A DNA stretch of 64,000 nucleotides from Candidatus Poribacteria bacterium (GTDB lineage Bacteria > Poribacteria > WGA-4E > PCPOR2b), in NCBI GenBank assembly GCA_965215015.1, contig OZ244042.1, positions 4,448,001-4,512,000 on the forward strand, in the 5' to 3' direction. Both the position numbers and the translations under genes were made by a program. The notes beneath the pieces were generated by a model that had not been told where the DNA came from, did not search any database, and was given only the letters and a program-made list of their open reading frames with translations. This document shows positions 33,755 to 54,113 of this stretch, piece by piece (position 1 is the first letter of the stretch; each line of letters opens with the position of its first letter).

Positions 33755-33877
33755 TTGAATTCTGAAAACTAAATTTGCTTCGTTTTAACTTTCACAAATG
33801 AAGATTATCAAACTTAATTCTATGAAGCATAAAAAAATCAACTTCTTTCGTTATCCAAGTGGAAAACAAGGAATTCG

Positions 33878-34108
33878 GATGAACTGTCGCGGCCCGATTC
33901 ATCGGGCCGCGTGAGTCGTATAGATACCAACAACGCTGCGCGACAGGTCCAGGCTCAATTCACCAAACACGGTCGCACAACATACCGGGCATTTGATGAG
34001 TCACCGAGGATACCATGACTATTGCGCCATAATCCTGGCTCAACCAACCATAACCATTGCGCGACCTTTTTTGGTGTTGGGTTTGAACATTCAACTCCGT
34101 AAGTCCTA
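33878..34108 (+). mobile_element. MITE-like element, family A (right part), abutting the 12-gene block
   Basis: Mosaic of the 17700-17785 and 14822-14913 modules. Ends TTCAACTCCGTAAGTCCTA. Confidence 0.7.
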
Positions 34109-34135
34109 TTTTATTGGAACACACACAAAAAACAG

Positions 34136-35890
34136 GTGGTGATTAATATAATTGGCGAATTACTACAATATATCTTTAGTCTTGAAGACCCATTTGGTAG
34201 AAACATTGTACGGTTTATTTTCTTTGTATTTGGGCTTGGCGTTATAAACTACGCGGTTCATATACTGCGAATAGAATATGATTATTTCTGCCTCAAACGT
34301 GTTCAAAGCTATATCAAAGGCAACCATGGGCTTGATGATATTTCTCCCGGTTTACTTGACAAATTACGCGCACAGAAATTCATAGTACAGGAATACTTAG
34401 TTATAAGCAGCATTTACAAGCGAATTCGTGATTTAGTCCAGATTAAGCAGAATCACGGGAAAATTGATCATGACGTACTCGGAGACATTCATGCAGGCGC
34501 AGCCAGCAGAAAGGCTGGTTTATCGAACTATATCCTCGGCACTCTCATCATCCTCGGTTTAATTGGAACATTAGGCGGATTAATTACCGCAATTAGTGAA
34601 GTGCAGCCCCTTCTGAGAGACATTCAAGACCTTGACCAGCTCCCCGAAATTCTTGATGCCCTTCGACTTACATTGAGCGGCATGAGCACTGCATTTGTAA
34701 CAACGTTAGCCGGATTAGTAACATCACTCGGTTTAGGGTTATGTGGTTGGCTCTTTAACCTTTCAAACTCTGCTTTTCTCACTAAATTTGAAACAGTTGT
34801 ATCAACGGAAATACTTCCCCACTTCACACAAGCCCCAGAATCCGCCCTTGAATCCTCTATGGATCGACTTCAAGTGAGTGTTGACGAATTTAAATTAGCA
34901 ACGGAAGACAACGTTCGGAGGATGGAACAGGCAATTCAACAATTAACGGAAAAGTCATGGGATGCTTATCTTGAACAACAATATGTCATTACGCAAGAGT
35001 TGGGTAAAATTCCGGCAGAACTTCGGGGAAGTTTAGGAGGGATAAATGAATATCAAGTCCTGATTCAATCCACAGTGGAGTCTTCTGAGGAAACAGCAAA
35101 ACAGTTCATGAATAAAATCTCAGAATTTCAAACCGCTGTGGATACGATGATGAACGATTTTAAGCGGATGACAAAGGAGGCTATATCTCAGGTTTCAAGA
35201 GATCAGGCTACACTGCTTGAGGGTGTAGAAAATGTCGTATCGGAGCTCAGAGAAGAAAGCGCAGGATTAGAAGAGACAATTCGTGAGACTCAGCGTGAGA
35301 CTCAGAGTTCACAAGCAAGATTCGCTGACGAACTTGCTAATAACCTTGCTGACACTCTTATCAAGGGTCTTGATACACAGCTTCAATCAGTGCTTCAACC
35401 CATCACAGATAGTCAACAAGATATGATGGAAGGACTACGTGAAGTTGAGTCGAGGATTAGTTCTGGACTTGAGAATCAGAATCAAGTTTTTGAAAGAATC
35501 AGAACCGAGTTGATAACCAATCGGCAGGAAATTGGTAATAGACTATCGCAATTGATAGGTGAGCTTCAAATTAGACCTACCCTTGAGGCACAGAATCAAG
35601 TGTTTGAGCGAATTGAAGGACATCTACAAGGGCAACATGAATTGGTTGATGAACAAAGGCAAATAATGCAAACATTAGATACTAGTGTGAGGCAACTTGA
35701 ACGAACTTTTCCAAGCGCAGCATCAGATGAACAGCAACGCACAGAGGAAATGTTGAAGCAACTCTCGGCAAATTTTGAAACATTAAACGAAAAGATAGGG
35801 ACATTGAACCACACCATGAGTCAACCTGGTTTGTATCGTTGGGGGGCAGCATGTCTCCGCTGGATCCGAGGTGATCGCAAGTGGCGATAA
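34136..35890 (+). CDS. MotA/TolQ/ExbB-family channel subunit with a long helical tail (ZorA-like)
   Basis: Three TM segments with ILGLIGTLGGL and GMSTAFVTTLAGL, then roughly 350 aa of heptad-rich Q/E/L helix. Confidence 0.8.
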   Translation: MVINIIGELLQYIFSLEDPFGRNIVRFIFFVFGLGVINYAVHILRIEYDYFCLKRVQSYIKGNHGLDDISPGLLDKLRAQKFIVQEYLVISSIYKRIRDLVQIKQNHGKIDHDVLGDIHAGAASRKAGLSNYILGTLIILGLIGTLGGLITAISEVQPLLRDIQDLDQLPEILDALRLTLSGMSTAFVTTLAGLVTSLGLGLCGWLFNLSNSAFLTKFETVVSTEILPHFTQAPESALESSMDRLQVSVDEFKLATEDNVRRMEQAIQQLTEKSWDAYLEQQYVITQELGKIPAELRGSLGGINEYQVLIQSTVESSEETAKQFMNKISEFQTAVDTMMNDFKRMTKEAISQVSRDQATLLEGVENVVSELREESAGLEETIRETQRETQSSQARFADELANNLADTLIKGLDTQLQSVLQPITDSQQDMMEGLREVESRISSGLENQNQVFERIRTELITNRQEIGNRLSQLIGELQIRPTLEAQNQVFERIEGHLQGQHELVDEQRQIMQTLDTSVRQLERTFPSAASDEQQRTEEMLKQLSANFETLNEKIGTLNHTMSQPGLYRWGAACLRWIRGDRKWR

Positions 35891-35912
35891 ACACCCGTAG
35901 GAGAATGCTTCA

Positions 35913-36539
35913 ATGAACCTTCGTATGCGTCAGAACTCTGTCTTGAATATCTGGGCCGCTTTTACCGATGTATTCATAGCGATGCTGCTCATCTTTCTGT
36001 TTTTTATTTTTATTCAATTTATCTCTAACAGCAAACTATTCCTGAAAATCCGAATGGAGAAAAAGCAAGATACGATACAGGAAGCGTTTGAAAAAAGGTT
36101 TGCCAGTGAGATAAGGCAAGGTATTATCTCTATTGAGCGGGACGGCAACCTGCAACGTTTTATGTTTAGCAACCGAATCCTGTTTAGAACCGCTGAGGCA
36201 GAACTGCAGCCACTTGGACGGTCCACCTTGATCCCTGTTGGTAGATTATTACAAAAACACAAAACAGGGTCTTATCAAAGTATACAGATTGAAGGGCATA
36301 CAGACGATGTTCCTATTGTAACACCACAATTCCCATCTAACTGGGAGCTATCGGCAGCACGGGCGATTGCGGTTTTACGCCTTTTTGTTGATGACATCGG
36401 TATTAACCCGAAAATGTTGACTGCAACAGGCTACGGAAAATTCCACCCTGTCGCACCGAATACCACAGTTCACGGACGAGCGAAAAACCGCAGAATTGAG
36501 ATTGTTTTAGTCTATTCCGAAACAGAGAGAATTCAATGA
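35913..36539 (+). CDS. MotB/OmpA-family protein (ZorB-like)
   Basis: WAAFTD (conserved TM Asp) and TM segment. OmpA_C motifs EGHTD, NWELSAARA, GYG..HP, NRRIEI. Confidence 0.9.
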   Translation: MNLRMRQNSVLNIWAAFTDVFIAMLLIFLFFIFIQFISNSKLFLKIRMEKKQDTIQEAFEKRFASEIRQGIISIERDGNLQRFMFSNRILFRTAEAELQPLGRSTLIPVGRLLQKHKTGSYQSIQIEGHTDDVPIVTPQFPSNWELSAARAIAVLRLFVDDIGINPKMLTATGYGKFHPVAPNTTVHGRAKNRRIEIVLVYSETERIQ

Positions 36540-37906
36540 ACATCTGTCCCTACAAAAACGAAAGCACGACATGCGGTTTACTTTCACCAGAAGTAGAGGG
36601 AACAATCGCTTATTGTAACCAGTGTTCTCAGCTTGCTTTTCGGTGTGCTGCAGGGCATTGGAACCGTGCCTTTGCGCGTTATTGCACGCAATGTAGTATA
36701 CGACTTGAGAAGCCCACGGTATGGGACATGGCATCGGGTAATCCGCATCGCACAGCAACATCTTCCACAAACTCAGTGGATGTTAATCTTCCGTTAAATT
36801 CAGGCGTGGTGGATATACCGCCCATAGAATCGGTTGACAACTTGCCGGGACTACTCGCAATTGATGGATTGATTGTTGTGCCAAATCCGCGTCAAAGAAA
36901 GCTTGATGCCTACACGATTGAAAATATACAAAACAGCATCCGTCTAAGGAATCAATGGGAGATTGAATTTGATACACCGTTGACATACGGTTCTACCCCA
37001 ATCTATCATGGACTCCATCTATATTTGGTTGTGTCGGGTGGGATCCAAAAAACGGATATTATTAATGGAGAAACAGAACTTATTAATAATATCAATGGTG
37101 TTGATGCCGATCGGATTGAGCCGATGCCTGGGTGTGCACCACTGAAAAGTGACGTGAACGGTAAGCCGACACTGATCGCTGGCGTGAAAAATGGTATGCT
37201 GCGGTTTGACTTCGCTAACAATATCGGTGAATATATCCAACATCCCTTCTTTGACGAGGAAAAAGGACCTTTGTCGCCTACGCTGTGCGGGAGTCATATT
37301 GTTTTTACATTTAAACGGGGATGCGTATTATCGTTCAACATTGACACATATCCATTGAATAGAAAAAGTCTGTTCCTTGAAAATAGGTACTTTTCGGCAC
37401 CTGTTTCGCTCAACGGTTTGGTCTATTTTGAGGTGTTGAGCGATAGAGGTATGCGTAGCCTCGCACGTTTTGATCCGAATTCAGGACAATTGTCAAACGC
37501 AGCGGATCTGGATCTTCTGCCGAGACGCGCTTTTGAAAGTCGCCCATCCCTGTTCATACATCCGCCGCTTACTAGTGGAAAACGGGTGTTTTTATCCGAT
37601 AGATCAGGAAAGAGCGTCTATACTTACGATAGCGATAGAGGTGCTTCTTTACCGATTAGGCGGTTGCTAGGAAACGATAGTCAGTATCGATTTGTACCGC
37701 ACCAATCCATTGTGGCGAACAATCAGATTTATTCTGCACATTCTTACGGATTAACTATTCTGCCGCTTGGACAAAATAATGCCAATCAACATCATTCGTT
37801 AGCGATGGGACAACCGACCAATCCGACACCCGTTGCACGCCCTATCCGGTATGGAGATAAAATATTCATTTTGTGCAAAGATCGACTCTTATGTCGGGAC
37901 TATTAG
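36536..37906 (+). CDS. Zn-ribbon plus PQQ-type beta-propeller protein
   Basis: YCNQC...C..GH.N...RYCTQC, then WDMASGNPHRT and repeated sP.....vy blades. Confidence 0.6.
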   Translation: MNICPYKNESTTCGLLSPEVEGTIAYCNQCSQLAFRCAAGHWNRAFARYCTQCSIRLEKPTVWDMASGNPHRTATSSTNSVDVNLPLNSGVVDIPPIESVDNLPGLLAIDGLIVVPNPRQRKLDAYTIENIQNSIRLRNQWEIEFDTPLTYGSTPIYHGLHLYLVVSGGIQKTDIINGETELINNINGVDADRIEPMPGCAPLKSDVNGKPTLIAGVKNGMLRFDFANNIGEYIQHPFFDEEKGPLSPTLCGSHIVFTFKRGCVLSFNIDTYPLNRKSLFLENRYFSAPVSLNGLVYFEVLSDRGMRSLARFDPNSGQLSNAADLDLLPRRAFESRPSLFIHPPLTSGKRVFLSDRSGKSVYTYDSDRGASLPIRRLLGNDSQYRFVPHQSIVANNQIYSAHSYGLTILPLGQNNANQHHSLAMGQPTNPTPVARPIRYGDKIFILCKDRLLCRDY

Positions 37907-37920
37907 GAGGTATATTGCGT

Positions 37921-39804
37921 ATGCTCCATTTAATAAATGTTCTAAGATTCACACTCACTATTAGCATATTTCTCATTTTTATCTTATTTCCGCCTATGGC
38001 AGCTGCCAAACATATCATCATAGTTTATGATGTATCTGGTAGTATGGTGAGCCTCAGGGGTGGCGGGCGCGTAATCACATACATGGAATCCGAAGATATC
38101 CGTCGTGTCAATGAATACCTGACAGCCCTCTTATTCACAAATACTTCACAGTCTTTGCGCGATAGGGTCAACGACTCATATATCAAGGAATGTGATGCCG
38201 CGTTTGTCGGTAAACCCCTATACCAAAGTGGCGATGTCCTCACCTACGCCGAGTATGCAGAAGAGCGAACCCCAAAAATTAATAGAGCACAAGTTAGCAA
38301 AAACGAGTTGCAAGGGCAGCTGCCGAATCGGGACTCTCTCAATGGACAGGTCTCTTACTTACTGCGCGCAGAAGTTGAGGTGTATGATGTGTTATACAAT
38401 AATGCAGACGACGAAACGTATTGGGTTTTCGTAACAGATGGTGACATTGATAACAGTGGTAAAAGCGACCCAGATGTATCTAGGATTTTAAGACGACTTG
38501 CTGAAATTGAAGAGGAGTTTTTTGATCCAATGATTTATGGTGTCTTTGTCAATAACCATGTAAAAATTGAAGTCAGGCGACTCCAAAAACGGGACGACAT
38601 CGATTCAATTTTCATTGCTACATCAACGACATCGAAAGAGCCGGTGCAGGAAATTCAACTATCACTAGATGAAGAAGGAAAGTTTTTCAGCGAAACGCTA
38701 ACTATCGACACGGAGAGCTCTGAAAAAACGAAATTTAATCTCAGTAACGTCAATGTGGAGATTGTTGACCGAGATAATAGACCGCTTCAAATAACGAATG
38801 AAGACAACACAACAGGCATTCTCAGTATCGATCCTGTTGAGCTTCATGGGAATCCACCCCCGCATGAATTTCGTATCCTACTTCCCGGCAATCGTGAGAT
38901 CGCTGCACCGGACAACAGGATGAATCTTGAAGTTACCTATAGTTTCAACGGAGAAGATAAAGTTTTTACTGCACCCCAGATGAACTATACTGTGGAAATT
39001 AAAATCATCTATGTTGCCAGACTGAACGATCCCGATCGTCCTGCAAAGCAGTTAGAACTCCTGTTTTCTGACGACAAATATAGTGAATCTTTGACGATTC
39101 AGACTGAAAGTCCAAAGATAGATGCATTTCAGATTGACCAAATCCAATGTCATATTCAATACAGGGATAATCGTAAACTTAGTGATGCGGTTGTGCCAAA
39201 AAACATAAAACGTATAGATGAATCGTTTAGCGTGGAAGTGCCGAAGCAGGATCGTTTGGATTGGTATGGTAACAAGGTTGTCCTTGAAATTGACTATAAA
39301 TATAAAGAGGAAACGTTATCTAAAACAATTGAGATACCCTATAAATTGGTAGGCGGTGGCACTGGTTTCCCAATCTGGCTGCTCTGGGTGCTCCTTGTTC
39401 CAGTTTTAGGTGTAATAGTCTTTTTTCTGATTCGTAAGATAATAGGATGGATAAAAGTTGAACATCGAATTAGGTTGACCCAAGTCAACGAGGCAGGCAC
39501 GCCGTTGCATGAAACAGCGCATTTTACACTCGAAAACAAAATGACTCTTGAATTTGGGCCTCGGGGTCCCAATGAATTACGTTTTGATGTCGGAAGCGAA
39601 GCTTTTCTACATTGCGTCAAGAAAAATCTAATCCTATTTGCGGATGGTGATGATGAGGAAGGACAGATATTGGATTTGCCCGAAACATTAACATTAAGTC
39701 GTGGCGAAGATGAGGACGATGTCTGTGTCAAGTGTGAGATAACGGATGGTGCTTATGACGAACCGGAGGAAGATGATGATGATGCCAACCCACTTGATAT
39801 GTAA
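37921..39804 (+). CDS. Membrane-anchored vWA-domain protein
   Basis: Signal peptide, MIDAS DVSGS, VTDGD, beta-rich middle, TM (IWLLWVLLVPVLGVIVFFLI), acidic tail. AGGAGG RBS before ATG 37921. Confidence 0.75.
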   Translation: MLHLINVLRFTLTISIFLIFILFPPMAAAKHIIIVYDVSGSMVSLRGGGRVITYMESEDIRRVNEYLTALLFTNTSQSLRDRVNDSYIKECDAAFVGKPLYQSGDVLTYAEYAEERTPKINRAQVSKNELQGQLPNRDSLNGQVSYLLRAEVEVYDVLYNNADDETYWVFVTDGDIDNSGKSDPDVSRILRRLAEIEEEFFDPMIYGVFVNNHVKIEVRRLQKRDDIDSIFIATSTTSKEPVQEIQLSLDEEGKFFSETLTIDTESSEKTKFNLSNVNVEIVDRDNRPLQITNEDNTTGILSIDPVELHGNPPPHEFRILLPGNREIAAPDNRMNLEVTYSFNGEDKVFTAPQMNYTVEIKIIYVARLNDPDRPAKQLELLFSDDKYSESLTIQTESPKIDAFQIDQIQCHIQYRDNRKLSDAVVPKNIKRIDESFSVEVPKQDRLDWYGNKVVLEIDYKYKEETLSKTIEIPYKLVGGGTGFPIWLLWVLLVPVLGVIVFFLIRKIIGWIKVEHRIRLTQVNEAGTPLHETAHFTLENKMTLEFGPRGPNELRFDVGSEAFLHCVKKNLILFADGDDEEGQILDLPETLTLSRGEDEDDVCVKCEITDGAYDEPEEDDDDANPLDM

Positions 39805-39917
39805 AGCGCATGAAACAAAAACACACGAAGGATATTTGTTGTAAAGTATTTCTGTTCATGGTATTTTATGGACATACAATTCAGAAATTAATTAACACAT
39901 AGATAATAGGAGATTAA

Positions 39918-40316
39918 ATGGAAGGCATTGCTGATTTTTTTGGAGATCCGTTAGTATGGCCAGCAGTTGTCTACTTTATTGCTTACACTCTTGTATGGAT
40001 AATTGCATGGGCACTCGGTCAGTTGTCCAAGCAGCGAGTAAGTGTTGAACGTGCAGCAGCATTCGCCTGGGGAATTGCGCTTTTTATGCACCTACTCGGC
40101 GGAATTGTACTTATAATATGGCTGTGGGACAGAGCAAATAATCGATTCGCTGAATGGATGCATACAACCCTTTATCTATTATTCTATATAGTCATTATGA
40201 TTGTCGATGTTTGCTTGTTGTTTTCAGTACTAACCAAAAATACGAAAAAAAGAGGGACTGCCGCGCCGATGCCAAAACCAACACGTAAACCTCGTAATCC
40301 AAAAAAGAGGTCATAG
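39918..40316 (+). CDS. Small 3-TM membrane protein with basic tail
   Basis: Three hydrophobic segments, K/R-rich C-terminus, AGGAG RBS. Confidence 0.75.
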   Translation: MEGIADFFGDPLVWPAVVYFIAYTLVWIIAWALGQLSKQRVSVERAAAFAWGIALFMHLLGGIVLIIWLWDRANNRFAEWMHTTLYLLFYIVIMIVDVCLLFSVLTKNTKKRGTAAPMPKPTRKPRNPKKRS

Positions 40317-40362
40317 ACAATGATGTCGGCGAAATCTCTAACTAAATACGAAGGAGAACACG

Positions 40363-43300
40363 GTGATTACACCTACGATATTTGTTGGACTTGGAACAAC
40401 CGGAACCGATATTTTAAAAAATTTACGTGAACTTATGGCTGAAGAGTATGGGCACGCGGGGTTGCCACTTTTCCGCTATATTGCCATTGAGACAAATGGG
40501 GACGTGAATGTGCAAAATACAAACCAAATGGAGGATTATGAACGAATCAACCTTATAAGGGCAACAATTCCGAACGTTAAACCGATTGACCTTAGGTTAA
40601 CGCCTGGAGAACCACGATACAACCCACATTTGGCGGATTGGCTGGATCCTGAACTCTTGAAAATTGAAGCGGGTGGTTTTATGGCTGGGGCTTCAAATAT
40701 ACGCATGGCAGGTAGATTGTGTTTATGGGAAAACTGGGCAAACGCCCGATCTACATTCGTCAACGCAATCGGTGCTATTACGGCACCCGCTACGAAACGG
40801 AAAACAATCAATATTCTAACAGAGCGTAATAAAATTGCAGGACACCCACTCGATGATGCCGGCTTCATTAAGGTCTATGTGCTTGGATCCCTCTGTGGAG
40901 GTTCTTGTAGTGGGATGCTTATTGATGTCGGATATTTTTTTAGACATCTCCTCAGTGCATACGGCGATAAATCAAGAATTGATGGTATTTTCACAATGTT
41001 CGACGAAACCCACGCTGCGAATCCTGACGACATGTTTAACATACGTTCAGCCAATTGTCATGCAAGCCTTTCGGAGTTAAATTACTATCATGATCAGGAG
41101 ACAACTTACGATATAACTTTTCCAGATGGGCGGAAGATTGAGAATATGCGAAAAAAGCCGTTTGATTATACGCTGTTTGTATCACCCAGTGGAGAAACTG
41201 CGGGCAACCAATTCTTAACAGGAGCCGGCGACTTTGATGAAGACGGTTTGAACTTGATGGTAGCACTGAATCTTTTTGCTGAATCTGCTGCAGACACAGC
41301 CGATATAAAAAATGCAATTCGCACAAATTATATATCTCATGCAAATTTTGGGACACGAAACCCCGTGAGACAGGGTGAAATCCCCACTATGATACGCTAT
41401 ATGGCCAGTTTCGGATTAACAGCAGTATGGTATCCCAAATATCGCATCGCAAGTGCTGCTGCCTGCTCAATCAGCGATAAATTATGTGAAAATTGGTTGG
41501 GATCACACATTCCCCAAGCCACAACTGTAAGAGATGCGGAAACGGAATGGAATCAGATTCTAAAAGAGAATATCGATACATTAACTAGTCCAGAAGGACA
41601 GCTCTCAATTAGAAATCGGATTAATACGCATCTTGAAGATGCAAGGCAACAATGGCTCAATACAGAAATCTCAGCCAATCAACTAAGTCAGAATATGACG
41701 AATTTTCCAGACGGTGATTCATTCAGGAAGAAACTTGAGCAGGGTGGAGAGTATGTTGAATTGATGAAAATGCAAGTGTCTGAATGCAAAAAGGCGTTTC
41801 TCGATGCGATTGAACAAAGTTTGAGGAACCAATTAGGAAGTATTGATTTTGAGGGAACGCGAGGCCTGGAAGATGTGAAGATATTCTTTGAAACGCTCGA
41901 TAAAGGTATAGAAAGCTCTATACAAAAGTGCCCTGATCGGATGCCGCCTTTAAAGTTGGATAAATTGGATTTCTCCGCGATGGAGAGAGCAGATAATAAT
42001 CTTTGGTTGAGGCTTATTTTTCTCCGGGATGATGCTGTTCAAGCACATCGAAAAAACATGGTCGAACAATATTGCAATTTGATTACCGCACCTAGGAAAG
42101 GTTTTTATGAGTCGGTTCGGAATCATTTCATCAGACCGATATTGCAGGAAATTCGTTCCGAACTCGGTTTCGGCGTCATCCCGACAGATGAAGGTGAACC
42201 TAACCGGCGTCGAACGATTAAACAGCGATTGGATCAGATAGAAGGGAATCTAAGCCAGTGCATTCAGAAATTCAAAACCAAATATGATAAAGCTATTAAT
42301 CCACCAATATCTGAATGTGTGAAAATTGTTGCTAATAACCCAGAAAATCGAATTGATACGGATGCAATTACACTGAGCCACCAGATCTCACAATCGGATG
42401 AGGGTATTGACTTGCTTGGTGGGGAACCGATGGCTGCTTTTTTAGAAAAAGAACAGAAAGACATTATCGCTCAGATGACTGAAACTTACCGACAACTATC
42501 ATTAGATCGGATTCAAGTTGATGATGTCGTTACAAAGGCTCAGGAACTTTTGGGCTCGGGGAGTTTCGATATCCAGAATCTCGCCAGCCGCTCAAATCCA
42601 TACCAAATGTTTACCCCTACTTACGAACCGTTTGCTGTCGACGATTCACCAAATATCATCTTTGGCAACTCAGGGGAGGCTTTAACTGACTTGAATAACA
42701 GTTTGAGTGGGCAAGGATTCTCGTTTCAAGTCAGTCCCTCTTCTGTAGAGCATCTCCTTTTTTTCTATCAGGAGGAAGCAGGTTTCGCCTTAGATGACCT
42801 TGAGTCTCATGACACGCTTGCCGCTAAATACAGCCAGTCTCCAGGAGAGTATGGACATTCAACCCATAAAGATGCTGACTTTTATAACCTTGAGTTTTAC
42901 TACAAAAAGCAAGTATTGCAATACTGGTGTCTTGCTTTAGGAAGGATTGTCCCTGAAATCTGGAAGCATATCAATAGAGACGCATTTTCTGGCGTTTTTT
43001 ATCAAACTCAGACCGAAGATATTTATTATGAATATAACGTTGACGGGTTATCTGAACGACTCGGCTTACATAACGATCCAGGGGGAATTAGAAATCTATC
43101 CCAGAAGCGAAACGAAACTGAGTATAACGGATTTATGAGATTAATCCGATCGTGTTTCGCAGATCTGGATCGCGAACAGATTGAGCAGCGCATTAATTCA
43201 TTGCTGAGGGAGATTGAAGACCCCAAGGAACATAGGGATATAAGTAAATTCTTTCGTCAGTTTTTAGATGATGTCTACCCTGAAAATGCTTCGATAGATT

Positions 43301-43743: not shown

Positions 43744-43749
43744 GCGGTT

Positions 43750-46440: not shown

Positions 46441-46458
46441 ACTGAGAATGGAACACCA

Positions 46459-47718
46459 ATGCCAAAAAGCGTATGTATCATCAACCTTTCAGCACCTGAA
46501 ATTCAGATAACCGTTTTAGTTGACAATCAGCGACAAGACATCAATCTTCGACTGCCATGGGAGGTAGGGTTTCGGCAAGAAAATGATAACACACTAGTTC
46601 CCTGTTTCGGTGAGGCATTCAAACGTCTCAACTCAAACCATCCCGCAGAAGTGCGGTTTCCGGATTTAGATGTGAAATTCAAGGAAATCAGGGATGAAAA
46701 AACCTTGCAATGCTTGTTTCACGCTTTTTTTGAGGAGATTTTTCACCAGCAGTTACCCGAACATGGCTATCCGATAGATGCGATGTCTGTATATGCCATC
46801 ACACCGTATCACTGGACACCAACACATCGCCAACAACTCAGAAAGGCACTCAAGCGTGTAAAAAGTAGGGAGCAAGTTTCATTTCTCAAGCCATCAAAAG
46901 TAACACTTCGGGGCCTGTTCAGCCAAATTCTATGCCTCTCGGCATATTATCAGAAGGCATGGATGGATATACTCACAGCCCCAAACAACTGCCATCTATT
47001 TCTAATAGATTTCGCACGGGACGATCTTGTTGTCTATCAAATGATTTGTAGTCAGTTGGAAGACAATGTTAAGGTTGAGCTGACCGATATGCTGCGATTT
47101 ACCGAATACTCCTCGGAAATACAAAAAACGATTGCAGGTGTACAAAAGGCATTGCAAAAGGTTAAAGGTGAACAGCACGTTGTAGTCGGTTTTTCTGGCA
47201 GAATTGACGATGATGATAATGTTGCGTTAACTATTATTGAATCGTTGCGCGCACGGTGCAGGGCAACTTTTCTCGAGCCACAGCCAATCGCAACACTTTT
47301 GGGCGGCGCAGAATTGGTTCGGCAATTTGAGAAAAAAAATCTTGAAAGACCACTTCACTTTGTCTATCATTTCTGCTACGGTGTGCGGTTACCTGATGGA
47401 AAATGGGTTGAACTTGTCCCCAAAACATGGACACCCCCTTATCACCGCAAAAAGGCCTTTCGCGCCACAGAATCGCTTGAAAAATTCGATGTCCAGCTTT
47501 TCTGCGGTTTATCCTTGACAAATAACAGCGATGTCCATCATGTCGCGACGCTTGAGATTGACTATACGGAGAATAACAATTTTTCATCGCGCAATGCGAT
47601 GGAATTTATACTTTCAATTACCATGAACGCCTCTACACACGGCACATTTACTGTACATTTTCCGAATCCGCAGGAACCGAGATCTGTTGAATTCACAGTG
47701 CCAACTTTGATGGACTAA
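46459..47718 (+). CDS. Degenerate Hsp70/actin-fold protein
   Basis: ITP..WT..HRQ.LR.A, LIDF, ATLLGGA and YGV....G.W.ELVP....P echo Hsp70 segments. Phosphate motifs are absent. Confidence 0.55.
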   Translation: MPKSVCIINLSAPEIQITVLVDNQRQDINLRLPWEVGFRQENDNTLVPCFGEAFKRLNSNHPAEVRFPDLDVKFKEIRDEKTLQCLFHAFFEEIFHQQLPEHGYPIDAMSVYAITPYHWTPTHRQQLRKALKRVKSREQVSFLKPSKVTLRGLFSQILCLSAYYQKAWMDILTAPNNCHLFLIDFARDDLVVYQMICSQLEDNVKVELTDMLRFTEYSSEIQKTIAGVQKALQKVKGEQHVVVGFSGRIDDDDNVALTIIESLRARCRATFLEPQPIATLLGGAELVRQFEKKNLERPLHFVYHFCYGVRLPDGKWVELVPKTWTPPYHRKKAFRATESLEKFDVQLFCGLSLTNNSDVHHVATLEIDYTENNNFSSRNAMEFILSITMNASTHGTFTVHFPNPQEPRSVEFTVPTLMD

Positions 47719-47755
47719 AACCTTAATCACTTCAGATTATACAAGGGAAAACGCT

Positions 47756-48922
47756 ATGTCCTATTTTAGATTTATGTTATTACTCCTCGTATTAGTACTG
47801 TTTGGATTCGTTTCAATTGGGTATTCACAAGGTAACACAGAAAACCCATACGCTGATCCCATTTTTTGGAAATTTTTGTTATTCGTTGTGGTTGCAGGCG
47901 CGATTTCTACTGTGGTTATATTGTTCGTGTTTCAAATGGTTAAGTGGTGGAAATCAATGTGGCTAAGAACACAAGCATTTCTGACAGAAATGGATCGAGT
48001 TAAACAGGAATTGACGGTAAGATTGGACTCCATTCAAAAAATTAGTATAGATTCCGCCAACAAATTGGAAAAAATGACACATGAACAAACATCAATTCAA
48101 AATGAACAGAAAAATATCCTGAATGATATTGGGCAACTAAAAGACATTACTGTATCTAATACGGAAATTGAGGGGGGCGAGGAGCATACATCAATTGATT
48201 ATCGGAGGGCAGCGGCGAGTGAGGTCCAATCAGCGCAAGAGCAAGTATCGGAATTGGTTGAGGCTTACAAAGATGGAGAGCCAATTGGGTTCATTAACAT
48301 TAAAGATCCAACGCCGGGTCAAAAGGCGTTGATGATTTTAAATTGGATAGCGCACGCTATAGAGGACTGGGTAAATGAATTAGAACAGTCCCGAACAGCG
48401 AACCCAGACCTCATTCAAACGCTGAAATCTGCGAATCAGGCTATCAAAGAGAAACTAAAAAAGGCCCGTGGACAGAAACCACCTTCGCCAGAACCACTCG
48501 ATCTGGATACTGATGTCAGCACAGATGCAGCATATAACGAACTAAAAAATGAGTGTCTTGTGTATGTGTCGCGTTATGAAGCGATGCTTCGTAAGCATCA
48601 ACTGGAATGCAAAATAGCCGAAACAGAATATAACCAGTTCATTCCGAAATTTATCAAAGATAGGTTATTCAATGGTGTGGCGAGATTTATCAATTTTGAA
48701 CAATTGCCTGAACAAGTCGATAAATTTTTACAAATTGTGGATTATGAGGTGGTCCCGATTGAGATAGGAGAAACGAAAGCCGACGCGCGTTTGCATGACA
48801 TTCAAGCCTCACGGCGAATCGGTGTTGACCCTGGAACCATTATTGAGGTCGTTTTACCGGGATTGCGACGGAAAGCAGACGGTGAAATCGTGCAAAAACC
48901 TGTGGTGATTCGCGGAGAGTGA
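47756..48922 (+). CDS. Membrane-anchored coiled-coil protein with GrpE-like C-terminus
   Basis: Two N-terminal hydrophobic segments, coiled coil, C-terminal D..LHD......PGTI.EV.LPG....G.IVQKPVV resembling the GrpE head. Confidence 0.65.
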   Translation: MSYFRFMLLLLVLVLFGFVSIGYSQGNTENPYADPIFWKFLLFVVVAGAISTVVILFVFQMVKWWKSMWLRTQAFLTEMDRVKQELTVRLDSIQKISIDSANKLEKMTHEQTSIQNEQKNILNDIGQLKDITVSNTEIEGGEEHTSIDYRRAAASEVQSAQEQVSELVEAYKDGEPIGFINIKDPTPGQKALMILNWIAHAIEDWVNELEQSRTANPDLIQTLKSANQAIKEKLKKARGQKPPSPEPLDLDTDVSTDAAYNELKNECLVYVSRYEAMLRKHQLECKIAETEYNQFIPKFIKDRLFNGVARFINFEQLPEQVDKFLQIVDYEVVPIEIGETKADARLHDIQASRRIGVDPGTIIEVVLPGLRRKADGEIVQKPVVIRGE

Positions 48923-50168
48923 CTTGATGAAAGAAAAGGATACCCGACCCGCTAACATTCAAAGCAAAGAAACTGTCCGCCCCCAAAATCAAATTGGAAG
49001 CATATTGAACATATCTGTCATAACAGAATATGAAAATGGAGATGTTTATCTAATCTTGGACAATAGAGATGAAAAAGCAATATCAATTACCATTTCCTAT
49101 GCGGAATCTGATAAGTCAATCGCCAAACCATTGGAACACTTTGAGCTGTCCGGTGATAGTCAACGAAAAGTGTCATTACCAAAGGGATTTGAGAAATGGG
49201 AAGAGCTCAAATTTGATGTAAGGGAGGAAAATCCAATAAGGGAGAAAAATAGACAGATTCCTAATACTTCTCTAAAGAAACTCTCGGATGAAGCTAAACG
49301 GCAGACAAAGGGTGATCCGCCCCAACCTAAAACCGAACCTTCAATTTCTAAATCAGAACAAACGGACAACCCAATAAATATAATAGGCAAAGATCTAAAA
49401 CCTGACATAGAAACGATCAATCCGCCTGAGCGACGTTCAACTGATTATCAGCGCAAAGCAGAAACAACTGTTCAAGAGACACGGGAACAAATAACAGAAT
49501 TGGAGTGTACCTACAAGGACGGAGGGCCAATTGATTTCATTAACATTCAAGATCCAACGCCGGGTCAAAAGGCGTTGATGATTTTAAATTGGATAGCGCG
49601 CGCTATAGAGGACTGGGTAAATGAATTAGAACAGTCCCGAACAGCGAACCCAGACCTCATTCAAACGCTGGAATTTGCGAATCAGGATATCAAAGATAAA
49701 CTAAAAGAGATCCGTGGACCGAAATCACCTTCGCCAGAATCACTCGATCCGGATACTGATGTCAGCACAGATGCAGCATATAACGAATTCAAAAATGAGT
49801 GTCTTGTGTATGTGTCGCGTTATGAAGGGATGCTTAGCAATTATCAACTGGAGCGCAAAATAACCGAAATAGAATATAACCAGTTCATTCCGAAATTTAT
49901 CAAAGATAGGTTATTCAATGGTGTGGCGAGATTTATCAATTTTGAACAATTGCCTGAACAAGTCGATAAATTTTTACAAATTGTGGATTGTGAGGTGGTC
50001 CCGATTGAGATAGGAGAAACGAAAGCCGATGCGCGTTTGCATGACATTCAAGCCTCACAGCGAATCGGTGTTGATCCTGGAACCATTGTTGAGGTCGTTT
50101 TACCGGGATTGCGACGGAAAGCAGACGGTGAAATTGTGCAAAAACCTGTGGTGATTCGCGGAGAATAG
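48265..50168 (+). repeat. Direct duplication of about 650 bp (48265-48922 and 49510-50168)
   Basis: Long identical runs, e.g. AAGATCCAACGCCGGGTCAAAAGGCGTTGATGATTTTAAATTGGATAGCGC, occur in both copies. Confidence 0.95.
48924..50168 (+). CDS. Soluble paralog with GrpE-like C-terminus
   Basis: C-terminal roughly 220 aa near-identical to the preceding gene, with an unrelated hydrophilic N-terminus. Confidence 0.65.
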   Translation: MMKEKDTRPANIQSKETVRPQNQIGSILNISVITEYENGDVYLILDNRDEKAISITISYAESDKSIAKPLEHFELSGDSQRKVSLPKGFEKWEELKFDVREENPIREKNRQIPNTSLKKLSDEAKRQTKGDPPQPKTEPSISKSEQTDNPINIIGKDLKPDIETINPPERRSTDYQRKAETTVQETREQITELECTYKDGGPIDFINIQDPTPGQKALMILNWIARAIEDWVNELEQSRTANPDLIQTLEFANQDIKDKLKEIRGPKSPSPESLDPDTDVSTDAAYNEFKNECLVYVSRYEGMLSNYQLERKITEIEYNQFIPKFIKDRLFNGVARFINFEQLPEQVDKFLQIVDCEVVPIEIGETKADARLHDIQASQRIGVDPGTIVEVVLPGLRRKADGEIVQKPVVIRGE

Positions 50169-50174
50169 CACACA

Positions 50175-51149
50175 ATGTCTATCAGACTCCTTATCGTTTT
50201 GCTCTTCAACGGGCTTCTTATCAATGCGGAGGCTTTTGCACAAGATGCTCTAAGCTTTGTCCAGATTGTAGATGGAATGATTCAGCGGCGTCCGCCCAAT
50301 ACTCGGCAGACAATTGGAAGGCGATATGTGTGGAATTTTCGCGGAAGACCCTACACCATCCTAATGACAATTGGCTTGGAGCAGTATAATTCTTACTCCG
50401 GCAGAGAACGCTACGATATTCCCAAATTAGTGGAAGAAGGGAGAACAACAATCGGCAATCTGACGCGTGAGTTCCGACGTACCTTCCAACGAAATCAGAG
50501 CTGGACCAAACAGGACCGCGTTGATTTCGTTTTAAGCTTTGTCCAATCCCTGCCGTACACGCTTGATAACGTGACTACAGGCTATGATGAATTTCGACGA
50601 TACGCAATTGAAACTTTGATTGAAGGAGGCGGAGACTGCGAAGATACGACGATCCTTGTGGCGGCTATCCTGCGCGGGTTAGGAGAAAAGACCGCACTGA
50701 TTTTCACCCCGGGACACATCGCACTCGGTGTCAGCGGAGACTACACAGGTACATCGTTTACCTTCAACGGCACAAACTACTACTACTGCGAAACAACCGG
50801 AACCGGTTGGACTGTTGGCAGGCTGCCTGCATCTGTCGGCAATGTGGCTGCGATTGTCCCGTTAAGCCCCTCTACAATACCCACACCTGTGCAGCCTAGG
50901 CCGACACCGCAGGTGCCAGAGCTTACACCTACACCCGAACCGCCACCTATACAACCAGAGCCGCAACCCGATAACAGAGAATCTTCAGAAACAAATAGTG
51001 CAGCCGGTATGGTGATTGTTACGCTCTTTATTCTCATCGGTTTGGGGATACTGATCGCGTTTCTGGTCTATCGTTTCATCATTTCAGATAACGATGATGA
51101 CATAGAAGATGATGACACACACGAATCAACAAATCCGTTAGATTGGTAA
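50175..51149 (+). CDS. Membrane-anchored transglutaminase-like (Cys-His) protein
   Basis: Signal peptide, FVQSLPY, GDCED, PGHIALG, YYCETT, Pro-rich linker, TM, acidic tail. Confidence 0.8.
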   Translation: MSIRLLIVLLFNGLLINAEAFAQDALSFVQIVDGMIQRRPPNTRQTIGRRYVWNFRGRPYTILMTIGLEQYNSYSGRERYDIPKLVEEGRTTIGNLTREFRRTFQRNQSWTKQDRVDFVLSFVQSLPYTLDNVTTGYDEFRRYAIETLIEGGGDCEDTTILVAAILRGLGEKTALIFTPGHIALGVSGDYTGTSFTFNGTNYYYCETTGTGWTVGRLPASVGNVAAIVPLSPSTIPTPVQPRPTPQVPELTPTPEPPPIQPEPQPDNRESSETNSAAGMVIVTLFILIGLGILIAFLVYRFIISDNDDDIEDDDTHESTNPLDW

Positions 51150-51160
51150 CCGATTCGCCT

Positions 51161-53728
51161 ATGATTAACCACCTCAAAGAAATCTATCGCGAATTATATC
51201 TACCCCCGGCAGATTCCGCAAACCCACCGTTCAGGGTTACACAGATTAATGCCCCTTACCTTTATACCGATGCGAACCTCTATGTAGATACGTTCGATAG
51301 TCCGAACCAATCTGTAAAGTTTGAGGTATCAAATGTTGGGAGTGGAAGATTAAATGTAGAAGGGATTCGTATTCCCCGTGGGGCCAAAAGGTGGATAAGG
51401 ACAGCTGAGGGCCCACAATCTGCTACACTCACATCAAATTCGGAACCGAAAGAAATTGAGCTGAACATTCTGCTAAGAGAACTACCGAACCCTTCATCCG
51501 TGAATGTTGTAAAACTGACCGTCCTCTCCAATTCAGAACGGAAAACGTTTAGCGAGATATTGTTAGGTGTGCGTCCCCCAGAAAATCAGTCTGTGAATTT
51601 GACACTTCCCGAATATCTCAACTTTGGAGAAATAACTGTCTGTAAGGTTTTGATTGCTAATCGTCGTGAAGATGCGGCGGCACCCCCAGTCGAATTTCTA
51701 CTCATCGAAGATTTTACACTTAATCCACCAACACGTCTTGAAATAACACAAAACGATGAATCCACTTTTGACGCGTATATTTTCACTTCAAAAGGTGAAC
51801 TACATTACAAATTAGATTTACGGACACCGGGTGTCGTAATGCCACAACAGGAACAATCTGGAATTAATTTCCAACAGACTGTTCCTGTGTCAATTGTTAG
51901 TCAAATATTTTCTGAGCATGCGATAACGTCCGATTCTGACTGGTTAATTGCACCGTCTCAAATCTTTACTACTGGATCTGCTATAATCGATTTACCTGTT
52001 TCTGTAAACGTTGAAAAACTGGAACCGGGGCGAAATTGCGGCGAACTTGTTGTAGCCGATAAGAAAACACAGGTATGGGTATGGTCCAAAGTTGTTAATG
52101 AAACAGCACTGACGTTAGAGAAGGAACAACCGAATATCCGCCACGTTGAACAATTCTCAGACCAAGAAGAGCCGCTGCCAATTGAAGTTGTATCAGCAAA
52201 TGAACCTTATCAATCTCTGATGATTTTTGAAGACATAGATTTTCAATTCCCACTGGCAGGCGATCAACGGACAGGTTATCTGATGGGCGACTTTAATCAA
52301 TGGGCACCGCGCACGTTGTTCCTTGAGAAAAGAGATGATAGAGGTAGCGTCACGTTAAGTGTTTCTGAAGGAATATACTGTTATCATGCTGAAATTGACG
52401 GTGAGATGCGGCTTGACCCTGCGCGGTTATACGAAATAGTCTGCTGTCAACACGGGTTAGCGTCCAAATTACAGATCGACAGAGCTGAACAAAAGGTGAC
52501 ACTGGAAAACAGGTCGGAACAGAAGTTAAAGCTAAAACTTCAATCTGCTACCAAATGGATGCGAATTAAACCTGAGACAATTGCTCTTCCCGCCAGCAAA
52601 AGAACTGAGATAACTGCGGTATTCCACCCGGAACATCTGCTGCCGGGGCTCAATTTAGGCTGGCTCCAGATGGAAACCGTAAGAGAACCGAAAAGGTCGC
52701 TTCATACGCCAATCTATGTTATCGGTATGACAAATGGGGCTGTTCCTGTTCTCCGAACTAAAGAGTTGGATTTTCCACAAATGGAACAGGGGAAAGTAGA
52801 AGGCATTCCGCTTACGATCGATATACTCGGTGAAGGAGAACTAAAGGGGGAAATTCAGCCGTCTACAGTCTTGCGTTTTGTGGAGGGCGATCTACATGTC
52901 CGAAACACAACAGCATTTAAACCGATGGGGGTTGCCCCACTTGTCCAGGTGTTAACTGAAAGACCCTCTAACGCTTATCGTAAACAGATCTCTGCGTCTC
53001 TGCTTACGGACTGCTATCTTATGAACCACAGGATGCATCGTTTCAAAGCCAAATATGATATGATTCACCTTGTCTCAGACCCGCCCGCTCTGTGCTTTCC
53101 TAAAGTTTATCTGTTTGATGACCCACAGCACGTCGATATAACGATAAAACGCAGTGATGGTAAAGGTAATGTTGTGTGTAGCGTTGAAATACCCGATGCT
53201 TTAACAGAGGGTGGATTCTTGAAGGTTAAGAACAGTGCTGCGAAAAATAATACTGGACATTATGAATTTGTTATTAATCCACAGGCTCGCACAAATGCTG
53301 GACGAGTTTCAGATACTTTACGCTTTATGGACACAAATTCCGGAATGGTACTGCCAATTCAATTCGTGGCAGATATTGTCGGAGGTGAAGCGAAGATTGA
53401 TGTTAAGACTCAGGGACAACGTTTAAATCTATTATCTGGTGGCATACCGTTAGTGATTACCAACATCAGTAAAGCTGAATTGCGGATATTTAAGTTGCTA
53501 TTTAAATATCGGCGGTTTTCTCTCTCTCCATATCTGACCTCGCAGCAGCGCACCCTCCTTCCCGGGGAATCTATTGAGAGGTTCATTAAGATGGAAGCAA
53601 CAGTCGGCTTGTTAGGTAGAACAATAGTCAAGGATACGCTTATTATTAGACTCAATGATCCACAATTTCCCAAAGGTGTCCTTAAAAAGGAGATTGTGGC
53701 TGAAATCCAAGGCCGTTTCCTGAATTGA
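51161..53728 (+). CDS. Multi-Ig-fold protein with a CBM48/AMPK-beta-like domain
   Basis: Repeated Ig-type starts (VSNVGSGRL, LENRSEQKL, ITNISKAEL). LMGDFNQW...G.Y.Y...IDGE.RLDP matches the E-set glycogen-binding pattern. Confidence 0.6.
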   Translation: MINHLKEIYRELYLPPADSANPPFRVTQINAPYLYTDANLYVDTFDSPNQSVKFEVSNVGSGRLNVEGIRIPRGAKRWIRTAEGPQSATLTSNSEPKEIELNILLRELPNPSSVNVVKLTVLSNSERKTFSEILLGVRPPENQSVNLTLPEYLNFGEITVCKVLIANRREDAAAPPVEFLLIEDFTLNPPTRLEITQNDESTFDAYIFTSKGELHYKLDLRTPGVVMPQQEQSGINFQQTVPVSIVSQIFSEHAITSDSDWLIAPSQIFTTGSAIIDLPVSVNVEKLEPGRNCGELVVADKKTQVWVWSKVVNETALTLEKEQPNIRHVEQFSDQEEPLPIEVVSANEPYQSLMIFEDIDFQFPLAGDQRTGYLMGDFNQWAPRTLFLEKRDDRGSVTLSVSEGIYCYHAEIDGEMRLDPARLYEIVCCQHGLASKLQIDRAEQKVTLENRSEQKLKLKLQSATKWMRIKPETIALPASKRTEITAVFHPEHLLPGLNLGWLQMETVREPKRSLHTPIYVIGMTNGAVPVLRTKELDFPQMEQGKVEGIPLTIDILGEGELKGEIQPSTVLRFVEGDLHVRNTTAFKPMGVAPLVQVLTERPSNAYRKQISASLLTDCYLMNHRMHRFKAKYDMIHLVSDPPALCFPKVYLFDDPQHVDITIKRSDGKGNVVCSVEIPDALTEGGFLKVKNSAAKNNTGHYEFVINPQARTNAGRVSDTLRFMDTNSGMVLPIQFVADIVGGEAKIDVKTQGQRLNLLSGGIPLVITNISKAELRIFKLLFKYRRFSLSPYLTSQQRTLLPGESIERFIKMEATVGLLGRTIVKDTLIIRLNDPQFPKGVLKKEIVAEIQGRFLN

Positions 53729-54113
53729 TACCTTCAAGATATCTTCTGTAAGGGGTGTCCTCAGATTACGGTTGCACAGGTGCTATTGCAGCACACGAGC
53801 CATACCCGCGCATGTGTGACGGCCGCACACAAGGTTCTGTTGCGATTGAGATTGAAAAATACACTTCATTGATATCGCAGATATCGCATCCGAGGCAATA
53901 GAAATTAAAAGCTGCACCTCAGTTGGGGTCTCCTGCTAAAATGCGGGGATATGTAAATGTTTATCAAAAGCTGCTATACACCTTTCGCCTCTCTGAGGCT
54001 CGGTGCAAAATTTGTCGTGATGCTATCAACATTCCGCCCTCTGGGGCTATGACAACGCATATCTGGTAGTGTTCACTTCATGAGGAAAACATAGCTACAT
54101 AAATAGGTGCTAA

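Follow-up and report, generated by a model that had tools for sequence, protein, structure and literature searches.

A twelve-gene block in a Poribacteria genome

We analysed a window of 64,000 nucleotides (nt) from Candidatus Poribacteria bacterium (contig OZ244042.1, positions 4,448,001 to 4,512,000), whose genome is a single-contig Poribacteria metagenome-assembled genome of 5.94 Mb. At 34136-53728 of this window lies a block of 12 plus-strand open reading frames (ORFs), named g1 to g12, in which genes for a ZorA/ZorB-like stator pair stand together with genes for a tubulin-like GTPase, an Hsp70-type protein and several envelope and scaffold-type proteins. The features of the locus, with protein lengths in amino acids (aa) and the basis of each assignment, are as follows (HMM, hidden Markov model; NBD, nucleotide-binding domain).

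34136..35890, + strand: g1, ZorA-like stator A subunit, 584 aa (PADLOC ZorA3)
35913..36539, + strand: g2, ZorB/MotB-like stator B subunit, 208 aa (PADLOC ZorB3, Pfam OmpA)
36536..37906, + strand: g3, cytoplasmic protein with a Cys-rich (zinc-ribbon-like) N-terminus and a probable beta-propeller, 456 aa (Cys pairs, HMM counterparts)
37873..39804, + strand: g4, probable membrane vWA-like protein, 643 aa (DxSxS motif, jackhmmer, hhalign)
39918..40316, + strand: g5, small membrane protein, 132 aa (three predicted membrane helices, basic tail)
40363..43743, + strand: g6, predicted Tubulin_2/FtsZl1 GTPase, 1126 aa (Pfam Tubulin_2)
43750..46440, + strand: g7, predicted Hsp70-type ATPase, 896 aa (Pfam HSP70, NCBIfam DnaK, PDB)
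46459..47718, + strand: g8, probable Hsp70-NBD-fold protein, 419 aa (ESM Atlas model of a homolog)
47756..48922, + strand: g9, membrane-anchored coiled-coil protein with a putative GrpE-like C-terminal domain, 388 aa (two N-terminal membrane helices)
48924..50168, + strand: g10, soluble g9 paralog, 414 aa (different N-terminal domain, same C-terminal half)
50175..51149, + strand: g11, probable secreted/periplasmic transglutaminase-like thiol enzyme, 324 aa (sub-threshold Transglut_core)
51143..53728, + strand: g12, large cytoplasmic Ig-like/beta-sandwich repeat protein, 861 aa (weak Pfam matches)
33755..54113, no strand: inserted island, about 20.36 kb between the flanking genes
32999-33754: upstream flank, enoyl-CoA hydratase gene
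54114-55676: downstream flank, acyl-CoA-ligase-type (AMP-binding enzyme) gene

An earlier note on this DNA had described 12 co-directional, tightly spaced ORFs in a block richer in AT than its surroundings, and both descriptions held. The junctions from g1 to g12 measure 22, -4, -34, 113, 46, 6, 18, 37, 1, 6 and -7 nt, 8 of the 11 being 25 nt or shorter, and the ATGA overlap of g2 and g3 is present at 36536-36539. The GC content, taken in 2-kb windows, is 0.41-0.46 inside the block versus 0.50-0.55 in the adjacent flanks, and this low value suggests recent acquisition. We saw no convincing promoter at the 5' end of the block and one weak terminator-like site (53813-53831). Metatranscriptomic contigs from one run, mostly 90-95% identical to the block, span 26 of its 30 bins; since they derive from a relative and may include carried-over DNA, they fall short of proof and are at best a weak hint that the block is transcribed. 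A GC-rich hairpin with 16-nt arms and a 2-nt loop lies at 33883-33916, within the inserted DNA and 130 nt past the upstream enoyl-CoA hydratase gene.

Comparison with other genomes of the genus revealed that the block sits in an insertion. The match to the empty sites of three of these genomes ends at about 33732 and restarts at about 54115. In 14 of 20 genus genomes just 39-122 nt separate the two flanking genes, against 20.1-20.6 kb in 4, this genome included; the other two, in which the upstream ortholog is missing, are uninformative. The marker gene g8 was detected in 23 of the 176 Poribacteria species genomes (18 of the 133 of good quality) and in 3 of the 19 other genomes of the genus. 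A syntenic cluster was found in 18 Poribacteria loci, 15 of which match all 12 queries, the other three being cut by a contig or locus end or lacking g12. Gene order is constant across these orthologous loci at 45-90% protein identity, which is more than chance would give. The flanks of the island vary among Poribacteria lineages, and the block has been inherited as a unit in the 18 loci across several genera. Altogether, we conclude that it is one accessory, horizontally acquired operon-like island, and that the 12 genes form a real, conserved and mobile system.

A stator pair, a tubulin-like GTPase and an Hsp70 set

The earlier note had labelled g1 and g2 a ZorAB-like motor, and profile searches agree. 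PADLOC model ZorA3 matched g1 at 1.2e-15 over residues 129-554, and six more ZorA models matched at E <=0.0024 (PADLOC models come without a curated cut-off). No Pfam family matched g1 above its cut-off, and Pfam MotA_ExbB did not match. Hydropathy predicts membrane helices at residues 28-46, 128-146 and 186-204 and, after them, about 350 aa of helical tail in the cytoplasm. The partner g2 matched ZorB3 at 6.7e-29 and Pfam OmpA at 3.8e-16 (59.7 bits against a cut-off of 27.2); its single membrane helix carries Asp19, conserved in 18 of 18 orthologs, and precedes an OmpA-type peptidoglycan-binding domain. We therefore firmly predict that g1 and g2 encode a ZorA/ZorB-like stator pair. Outside the window, a 650-aa ORF on the minus strand (G000:C1:1317961-1319913) is weakly similar to g1 (24% over 226 aa, E 1e-5). 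It is followed by ORFs of 248 and 475 aa and may belong to a separate ZorA-like system.

The tubulin-like GTPase label given to g6 likewise stood, with a match to Pfam PF13809 (Tubulin_2) at 4e-43 and 148.5 bits against a cut-off of 27. It is predicted to start with a tubulin-like domain, to continue in a long helical stretch and to end in an acidic, disordered C-terminus. Across 30 diverse homologs, G9/G11/G14 and G179/G180/G184 of the G-box are invariant, as is E238, and 1733 relatives were found at E <=0.001 among 1.84 billion representatives. From these data g6 is firmly assigned, as a prediction, to the Tubulin_2/FtsZl1 GTPases. The genome has a second Tubulin_2 gene (G000:C1:2291135-2294014, 959-971 aa) that is 36% identical to the g6 N-terminal domain and is followed by a tubulin-like fragment (2294168-2294443); none of the other 11 families lies near it.

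Of the Hsp70 pair proposed earlier, the first member, g7, was confirmed. It consists of an N-terminal Cys4 zinc ribbon, Ig-like (ASH/HYDIN-type) domains and an NBD from residue 355, and it matched PF00012 HSP70 (1.3e-34, 119.9 bits against a cut-off of 20.6), NCBIfam DnaK (7.5e-37) and the DnaK NBD in the PDB (2e-28). The motifs D362-G-T-T-N367 and D538-F-G-G-G-T-x-D545 are invariant in 19 sequences. The firm prediction is thus an Hsp70 NBD protein and, because the NCBIfam equivalog cut-offs for DnaK and HscA were not reached, a divergent member of the family rather than DnaK itself. The second member, g8, is plausible and not established. It lacks the ATPase motifs, and the structure closest to an ESM Atlas model of a 69%-identical homolog (pTM 0.69) was a DnaK cluster (TM 0.67 over 379 residues), pointing to a probable Hsp70-fold pseudo-ATPase. 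Of 188 g8 homologs found, all 120 that were listed are at least 58% identical, and the family appears to be specific to Poribacteria.

A relation of g8 to DUF5716 and of g12 to DUF5717 is no more than a lead; hhalign gave just 0.2% and 1.1%, respectively. The Atlas features of a g8 homolog were closest to DUF5716 (score 0.92), and DUF5717_N weakly matched g12 in three genomes (E 0.02-0.23). A survey of 301 genomes from the phylum to which locus L149 belongs gave two loci, and in both the DUF5716 and DUF5717 genes are adjacent. PF18980 had no match in the genome. Another Poribacteria family has two Hsp70-like ORFs of 542 and 756 aa close to a 521-aa ORF that DUF5717_N matches weakly (1.5e-4; G044:C35:6696-12694), and this set may be a separate Hsp70-centred system.

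The proposed GrpE pair is a paralog pair with weak signs of a GrpE relationship; its identity as GrpE is plausible and not established. The C-terminal 281 aa of g9 and g10 are 76% identical. A 300-nt stretch (48239-48538 versus 49485-49784) reaches 90% identity, well above the remainder of the two genes, which suggests gene conversion; loci L002, L004 and L055 are apparently single-copy for this family. When a C-terminal HMM was compared with 29 true GrpE proteins, 7 of them were among its 23 weakest matches (36 stretches listed), in register. The positional equivalents of g9/g10 in L072 and L070 matched PF01025 at 3.8e-4 and 6.9e-4, below the cut-off, and the top ESM Atlas feature match of a g9/g10 ortholog was a GrpE-domain cluster (0.82, a lead only). 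An HMM of Poribacteria GrpE found nothing significant in the loci. We regard a GrpE-like C-terminal domain in g9 and g10 as weakly indicated. In other Poribacteria genomes, true GrpE domains (E 1e-11 to 3e-47) occur within long ORFs of 578-1153 aa (G035:C1:4357602, G026:C137:30535, G024:C1:677242 and G003:C1:3612738), and several Poribacteria have second small GrpE genes.

Envelope and scaffold-type proteins

We predict that g4 is a membrane protein with an N-terminal anchor, a periplasmic vWA-like domain with beta-rich repeats, a helix at residues 501-519, a cytoplasmic domain and an acidic tail ending in NPLDM; the gene may actually begin downstream of the GTG at 37873. The vWA label of the earlier note is supported by a DxSxS motif (D53, S55, S57) and a later Asp that are invariant in 11 sequences from four lineages. 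In addition, jackhmmer linked g4 to proteins of L072, L076 and L065, and its C-terminal domain resembles that of the proteins at the same position in L070 and L068, which are positive for Pfam VWA_2 (hhalign probability 92%). g4 itself had no vWA match in Pfam or the PDB, and we consider it a probable membrane vWA protein. Weak HMM counterparts of g5 are found directly upstream of the tubulin gene in L065, L067, L068 and L076.

The predicted g11 protein has a signal-like N-terminus, a linker rich in Pro and one membrane helix, and its acidic tail ends in NPLDW. The transglutaminase label gains from Cys155 and His181, which are kept in 19 of 19 sequences. The Pfam Transglut_core matches are sub-threshold (15.2-17.7 bits against a cut-off of 23) and fall in the same region in 3 of 3 orthologs tested; NCBIfam LapG matched at 0.0013. 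The protein is probably a transglutaminase-like thiol enzyme. The C-termini of g4 and g11 (39658-39804 and 51075-51149) have an acidic tail and a common terminal motif, [ND]PL[DK]x, in most of 18-19 orthologs, suggesting a shared cytoplasmic docking partner.

By hydropathy, g4 and g11 begin with signal or anchor segments, their vWA-like and transglutaminase-like domains come next and lie outside the inner membrane, and each protein has a single later membrane helix and a cytoplasmic tail. The tubulin-like and Hsp70-like proteins and g3, g8, g10 and g12 have no predicted membrane segment. With the OmpA-like domain of g2 also outside, this topology agrees with the envelope-spanning arrangement pictured earlier.

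Two further proteins may serve as scaffolds. The N-terminal Cys pairs of g3 are invariant, and one ortholog gave a weak PQQ_2 match; g3 had no match in the PDB. HMM counterparts of g3 occur in L065, L070, L076, L111 and L116, among which the L076 protein matched Pfam Zn_Ribbon/DZR and the L070 protein a Pfam beta-propeller. The protein at the g3 position in L068 has Zn_Ribbon/DZR matches, yet the g3 HMM did not match it. For g12 the Pfam matches were weak (BACON_2, Cep192, AMPK1_CBM and HYDIN-type Ig), with AMPK1_CBM reaching 29 bits in the L004 ortholog.

The Ig-like domains of g12 and of the g7 N-terminus (43750-44800) gave weak matches to HYDIN/CFA65, Cep192, ASH and MSP, and Ig-like matches at L116:3307-5733 pass 1e-6. 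In eukaryotes these families are typical of microtubule- and cilia-associated proteins. The matches may reflect only a common PapD-like fold.

None of the 12 proteins matched a nuclease or helicase family in Pfam, PADLOC or NCBIfam, as the earlier note had remarked from inspection, and a pattern scan found the Walker A motif in none of them.

Relatives in Poribacteria and in other phyla

Two Poribacteria variants are arranged differently from the window. Locus L059 has the order g9N-like, ZorA, ZorB, g11, PqiA-like, tubulin, g12. In genome G044 the order is g8, g9-like, g12, ZorA (cut), with the g12 homolog adjoining ZorA on a contig of 11.5 kb; the only Tubulin_2 gene of this genome is of a distant type and lies in another operon on another contig. 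Some Poribacteria versions encode an additional small membrane protein that resembles PqiA (Pfam PqiA, about 1e-11 to 1e-12). Its gene stands between g11 and g12 in L002 (19927-20421) and L005 (21193-21711) and between g11 and the tubulin gene in L059 (9228-9722); the window lacks it.

To survey relatives in other phyla, we built HMMs from the orthologs and scanned them against loci around Tubulin_2 relatives. A core string emerged, consisting of g3-like, g4-like, g5-like, Tubulin_2 and Hsp70-like (about 900-1170 aa) genes and a gene for a protein with the g9/g10 C-terminal domain. It was found, whole or in part, in Lentisphaerae (L076), a deltaproteobacterium (L116), Desulfomonilaceae (L072 and L105), Melioribacteraceae (L111) and loci L112, L070 and L065.

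Among 61 other loci, many of which are cut by contig ends, 13 have a ZorA-like and ZorB-like pair next to the tubulin gene. The 13 comprise seven from Deinococcaceae (six of them Deinococcus), four from Armatimonadota (L074, L118, L120 and L143), one from an actinomycete and one unclassified locus. A ZorA-like gene alone was found in three more of the 61, including L108 and L068, and a ZorB-like gene alone in five. The order in L108 is vWA, tubulin, Hsp70, three unknown genes and ZorA-like (cut), while in L068 a MotA_ExbB protein is encoded downstream of the vWA/Hsp70/tubulin set. On the Deinococcus radiophilus plasmid pRadio2 (L154, 94441-102193), a tubulin-like gene is followed by an IS630 transposase gene, a hypothetical gene, a 'methyl-accepting chemotaxis protein' gene and an OmpA family gene; judged by position, these downstream genes are similar to the ZorA-like and ZorB-like ones at other Deinococcus loci, so that the IS630 element interrupts this copy of the triplet.

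A FastTree tree of 79 tubulin domains, midpoint-rooted and without a support test, has two clades, one with motor-pair contexts and the other with Hsp70/vWA contexts and the Poribacteria. Since motor genes also occur within the Hsp70/vWA clade (Poribacteria, L108 and L068), the pairing is present in both. The genes adjoin tubulin genes in at least four arrangements, namely the window type, L059, L074/L119 and L108/L068. The earlier note had allowed that the motor and tubulin/Hsp70 genes might never be co-located elsewhere. They are found together in 17 further Poribacteria loci and in L108 and L068, and motor and tubulin genes occur together in Deinococcus, Armatimonadota and others as well.

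We conclude that the island is very probably a composite FtsZl1 system in which a core shared by several phyla is joined by extra Poribacteria parts. These extra parts are the ZorAB-like stator pair, g8, the transglutaminase-like g11 and the Ig-repeat protein g12.

A possible role in conflict, and its alternatives

A partial scan of the neighbours of 21 related loci found conflict-type domains at 6 of them: TIR-NB-ARC-TPR (L076), TIR (L067), GmrSD (L102 and L103), Fic (L116) and RHS with GAP1-M (L107). The accessory distribution, the low GC content and these neighbours make a conflict role the most likely function, and we put at roughly 45% the probability that the block is an envelope-triggered conflict (anti-phage or anti-invader) system, a composite machine around Tubulin_2. 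In such a system, the vWA and thiol-enzyme modules in the periplasm would detect a disturbance of the envelope, as would the ZorB-like plug bound to the wall. The signal would travel inward through the ZorA-like motor, whose cytoplasmic tail is long, and through the tails of g4 and g11 on the cytoplasmic side; by analogy with Zorya, the stator pair would be both sensor and transmitter. The output would be a GTP-dependent tubulin-like assembly on the Ig-repeat and propeller scaffolds, which the Hsp70 cycle would start, remodel or reset; g9 and g10 would act as exchange factors and g8 as a regulatory pseudo-ATPase. We would expect a physical or membrane-level block as the result rather than nucleic-acid cleavage. 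The catalytic signatures that such a scheme would use are intact, namely ZorB Asp19, the tubulin G-box and E238, the Hsp70 phosphate motifs and g11 Cys155/His181.

Several results weigh against a conflict role or against parts of this scheme. No conflict-type neighbour was seen at the other 15 of the 21 related loci scanned, and because L102 and L103 are close kin the six positives are not independent. The block contains no known effector (nuclease, TIR or pore former), PADLOC recognising only ZorA and ZorB in it. The window flanks are metabolic genes and not a defence island. The ends of the island have no tRNA, integrase or flanking direct repeats, and no relatives of the block were found on viral contigs. 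For the chaperone set, hhalign of g8 with g7 gave 0.5%, searches of the PDB and Pfam with g8 gave nothing, and the weak matches of its own HMM are not Hsp70. Similarly, g9 and g10 had no Pfam match to GrpE (PF01025) at E <=1 and none in the PDB, and hhalign with Poribacteria GrpE gave 0.3% and 1.2%, the latter alignment being in the expected register. We also found no experiment on any family member in print, and the authors who defined the FtsZl1 operons favoured membrane remodelling, as far as the accessible text of their paper goes (PMC2875224).

This last proposal leads to an alternative that we consider rather unlikely, in which the block is a machine for membrane remodelling or envelope morphogenesis with no part in conflict. 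Powered by the stator and served by its own chaperone set, a tubulin polymer would shape or move inner-membrane or periplasmic structures such as vesicles, invaginations or the wall. Most parts of the block are indeed membrane or envelope proteins, the block could act on the wall through its peptidoglycan-binding domain and its periplasmic transglutaminase-like enzyme, and the lack of a nucleic-acid effector and the housekeeping metabolism encoded on both sides fit as well. However, a clean insertion/deletion carried by 23 of 176 species and 4 of 20 genus genomes stands outside the core cell plan, the low GC content suggests recent acquisition, and several relatives have conflict-type neighbours.

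It is improbable that the block is instead a motor-driven apparatus for surface or periplasmic transport and adhesion in sponge association, with a gliding-like or Tol/Ton-like force by which the stator would move or expose a vWA adhesin along a cytoplasmic filament track. An analogy is the Agl-Glt machine of Myxococcus with its vWA adhesin. The combination of a stator-like motor, a cytoskeletal polymer and a vWA-type protein would suit this role, as would the sponge-dwelling lineage (judged from record titles and one run label), but g4 is predicted to be anchored in the inner membrane rather than displayed on the surface, Pfam and NCBIfam searches showed no outer-membrane or secretion component, and the same core is found in free-living lineages (Desulfobacterota, Lentisphaerae and Deinococcus). 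Least probable to us is that the island merely houses two or more independent systems, a Zorya-like motor system and a separate tubulin/Hsp70 system. The modules do occur separately in other loci: the core is found without ZorAB in L076, L116, L112 and L111, Tubulin_2 and ZorAB occur without Hsp70 or vWA in Deinococcus and Armatimonadota, and G044 has g8, g9-like, g12 and ZorA with no tubulin gene on the same contig. Against independence stand the tight spacing of the 12 co-directional genes, their inheritance as a block in 18 loci, the recurrence of motor-tubulin adjacency in different arrangements and the absence of Zorya effector families.

We tentatively propose, with more doubt than confidence, that mechanical or allosteric coupling links the ZorAB-like stator to a polymer of the tubulin family, which would make the system a new class of bacterial machine. 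An ion-driven 5:2 rotary motor in the inner membrane might then control a cytomotive GTPase filament, with the Hsp70/exchange-factor cycle as its assembly and disassembly engine, and the output might be a structural immune or envelope response without a nucleic-acid effector. On the same tentative proposal, the Deinococcus/Armatimonadota triplet of Tubulin_2, ZorA-like and ZorB-like genes would be the minimal culturable form and the Poribacteria island the most elaborate. Tubulin_2/FtsZl1 is among the largest bacterial branches of the tubulin superfamily without a known function, and its repeated wiring to a Zorya-type motor and a private Hsp70 system provides concrete, testable partners, with a minimal three-gene version carried by culturable Deinococcus strains. 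If the coupling is true, a stator motor, a tubulin polymer and Hsp70 are linked in one bacterial apparatus, and control by ZorAB-type motors extends beyond nuclease recruitment.

Downstream of the island, a 502-aa ORF in the flank (58475-59983, minus strand) had no Pfam match at E <=1e-5.

Comparison with known systems

The block had been put forward as an undescribed system, a claim that does not hold in full. Its core belongs to the FtsZl1-vWA-OmpA operon family described by Makarova and Koonin in 2010 (PMC2875224), and both the tubulin+vWA theme and the HSP70+GrpE theme are in print from 2020 (PMC7159879); the block extends these operons and conflict systems and so is not wholly undescribed. 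According to the available text of the first paper, FtsZl1 operons encode vWA proteins with an intact DxSxS motif, OmpA-family proteins, a GTPase, a kinase and many membrane proteins, include families A1-A2 and B1-B9, and are known by prediction only (PMC2875224). The block is like them in having Tubulin_2 (g6) and an OmpA-family neighbour (g2), and g4 is a probable counterpart of their vWA protein. Unlike them, it has no match to a P-loop GTPase or Ser/Thr kinase (which are frequent and not universal in FtsZl1 operons), its OmpA-family gene is the B subunit of a stator pair, and it adds genes for an Hsp70, for probable GrpE-like, Hsp70-fold and transglutaminase-like proteins and for an Ig-repeat protein. 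The term 'MotA' is absent from the paper's text as far as available, and its supplementary neighbourhood tables may list some of the block's genes (PMC2875224).

Kaur, Burroughs, Iyer and Aravind (2020) described DO-GTPase/GAP1-N2 systems, mainly from Firmicutes and Actinobacteria, with three non-overlapping themes, and proposed the conflict reading for tubulin/HSP70 systems (PMC7159879, here and below from the accessible text). Two of the themes are tubulin+vWA and HSP70+GrpE plus an extra HSP70-domain-only gene, and the systems also feature repeat-rich beta-sandwich proteins, Zn ribbons and a membrane-proximal location (PMC7159879). These map onto g4/g6, g7/g8/g9/g10 and g12. Unlike these systems, in whose text 'MotA' does not appear, the block joins both themes and adds a ZorAB-like motor. 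It also has no DO-GTPase (no Walker A motif and no GTPase family match) and no GAP1 (no Pfam match at E <=0.01, with a library that did find GAP1-M beside the L107 tubulin gene).

In Zorya, a ZorA5B2 proton motor detects invasion and signals through its tail (PMC11946911), and ZorAB is accompanied by ZorC/D, ZorE or ZorF/G (PMC11946911, PMC11890865), as described in the sections of these papers available to us. The block resembles Zorya in its ZorA-like protein with three helices and a long helical tail and in its ZorB-like protein with a membrane Asp and a peptidoglycan-binding domain, and the best PADLOC matches of g1 and g2 are type III models. It differs in having neither a nuclease nor ZorC, D, E, F or G (g3-g12 match no PADLOC model at E <=0.01), its motor partners being a tubulin-like GTPase and an Hsp70 set. 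Thus the whole block does not correspond to an already named PADLOC system, only its ZorA and ZorB being recognised. Our literature searches turned up no account that joins a ZorAB-like motor to Tubulin_2 or Hsp70, and in the searchable text of a paper on stator evolution a term search for tubulin, vWA, FtsZ and Hsp70 returned no mention (PMC12505986). Nor did we find in print a system that unites the two themes with a ZorAB-like motor and does without the DO-GTPase/GAP1 pair.

A partial parallel to the block is offered by the Deinococcus and Armatimonadota triplets. They belong to a distant tubulin clade, and our HMMs detected no Hsp70, vWA, GrpE-like, g8, g11 or g12 genes there. Like the block, they combine ZorA-like and ZorB-like genes with Tubulin_2, the Tubulin_2 gene being followed directly by the ZorA-like and then the ZorB-like gene, and in RefSeq the three carry the labels 'tubulin-like domain-containing protein', 'methyl-accepting chemotaxis protein' or hypothetical, and 'OmpA family protein'.

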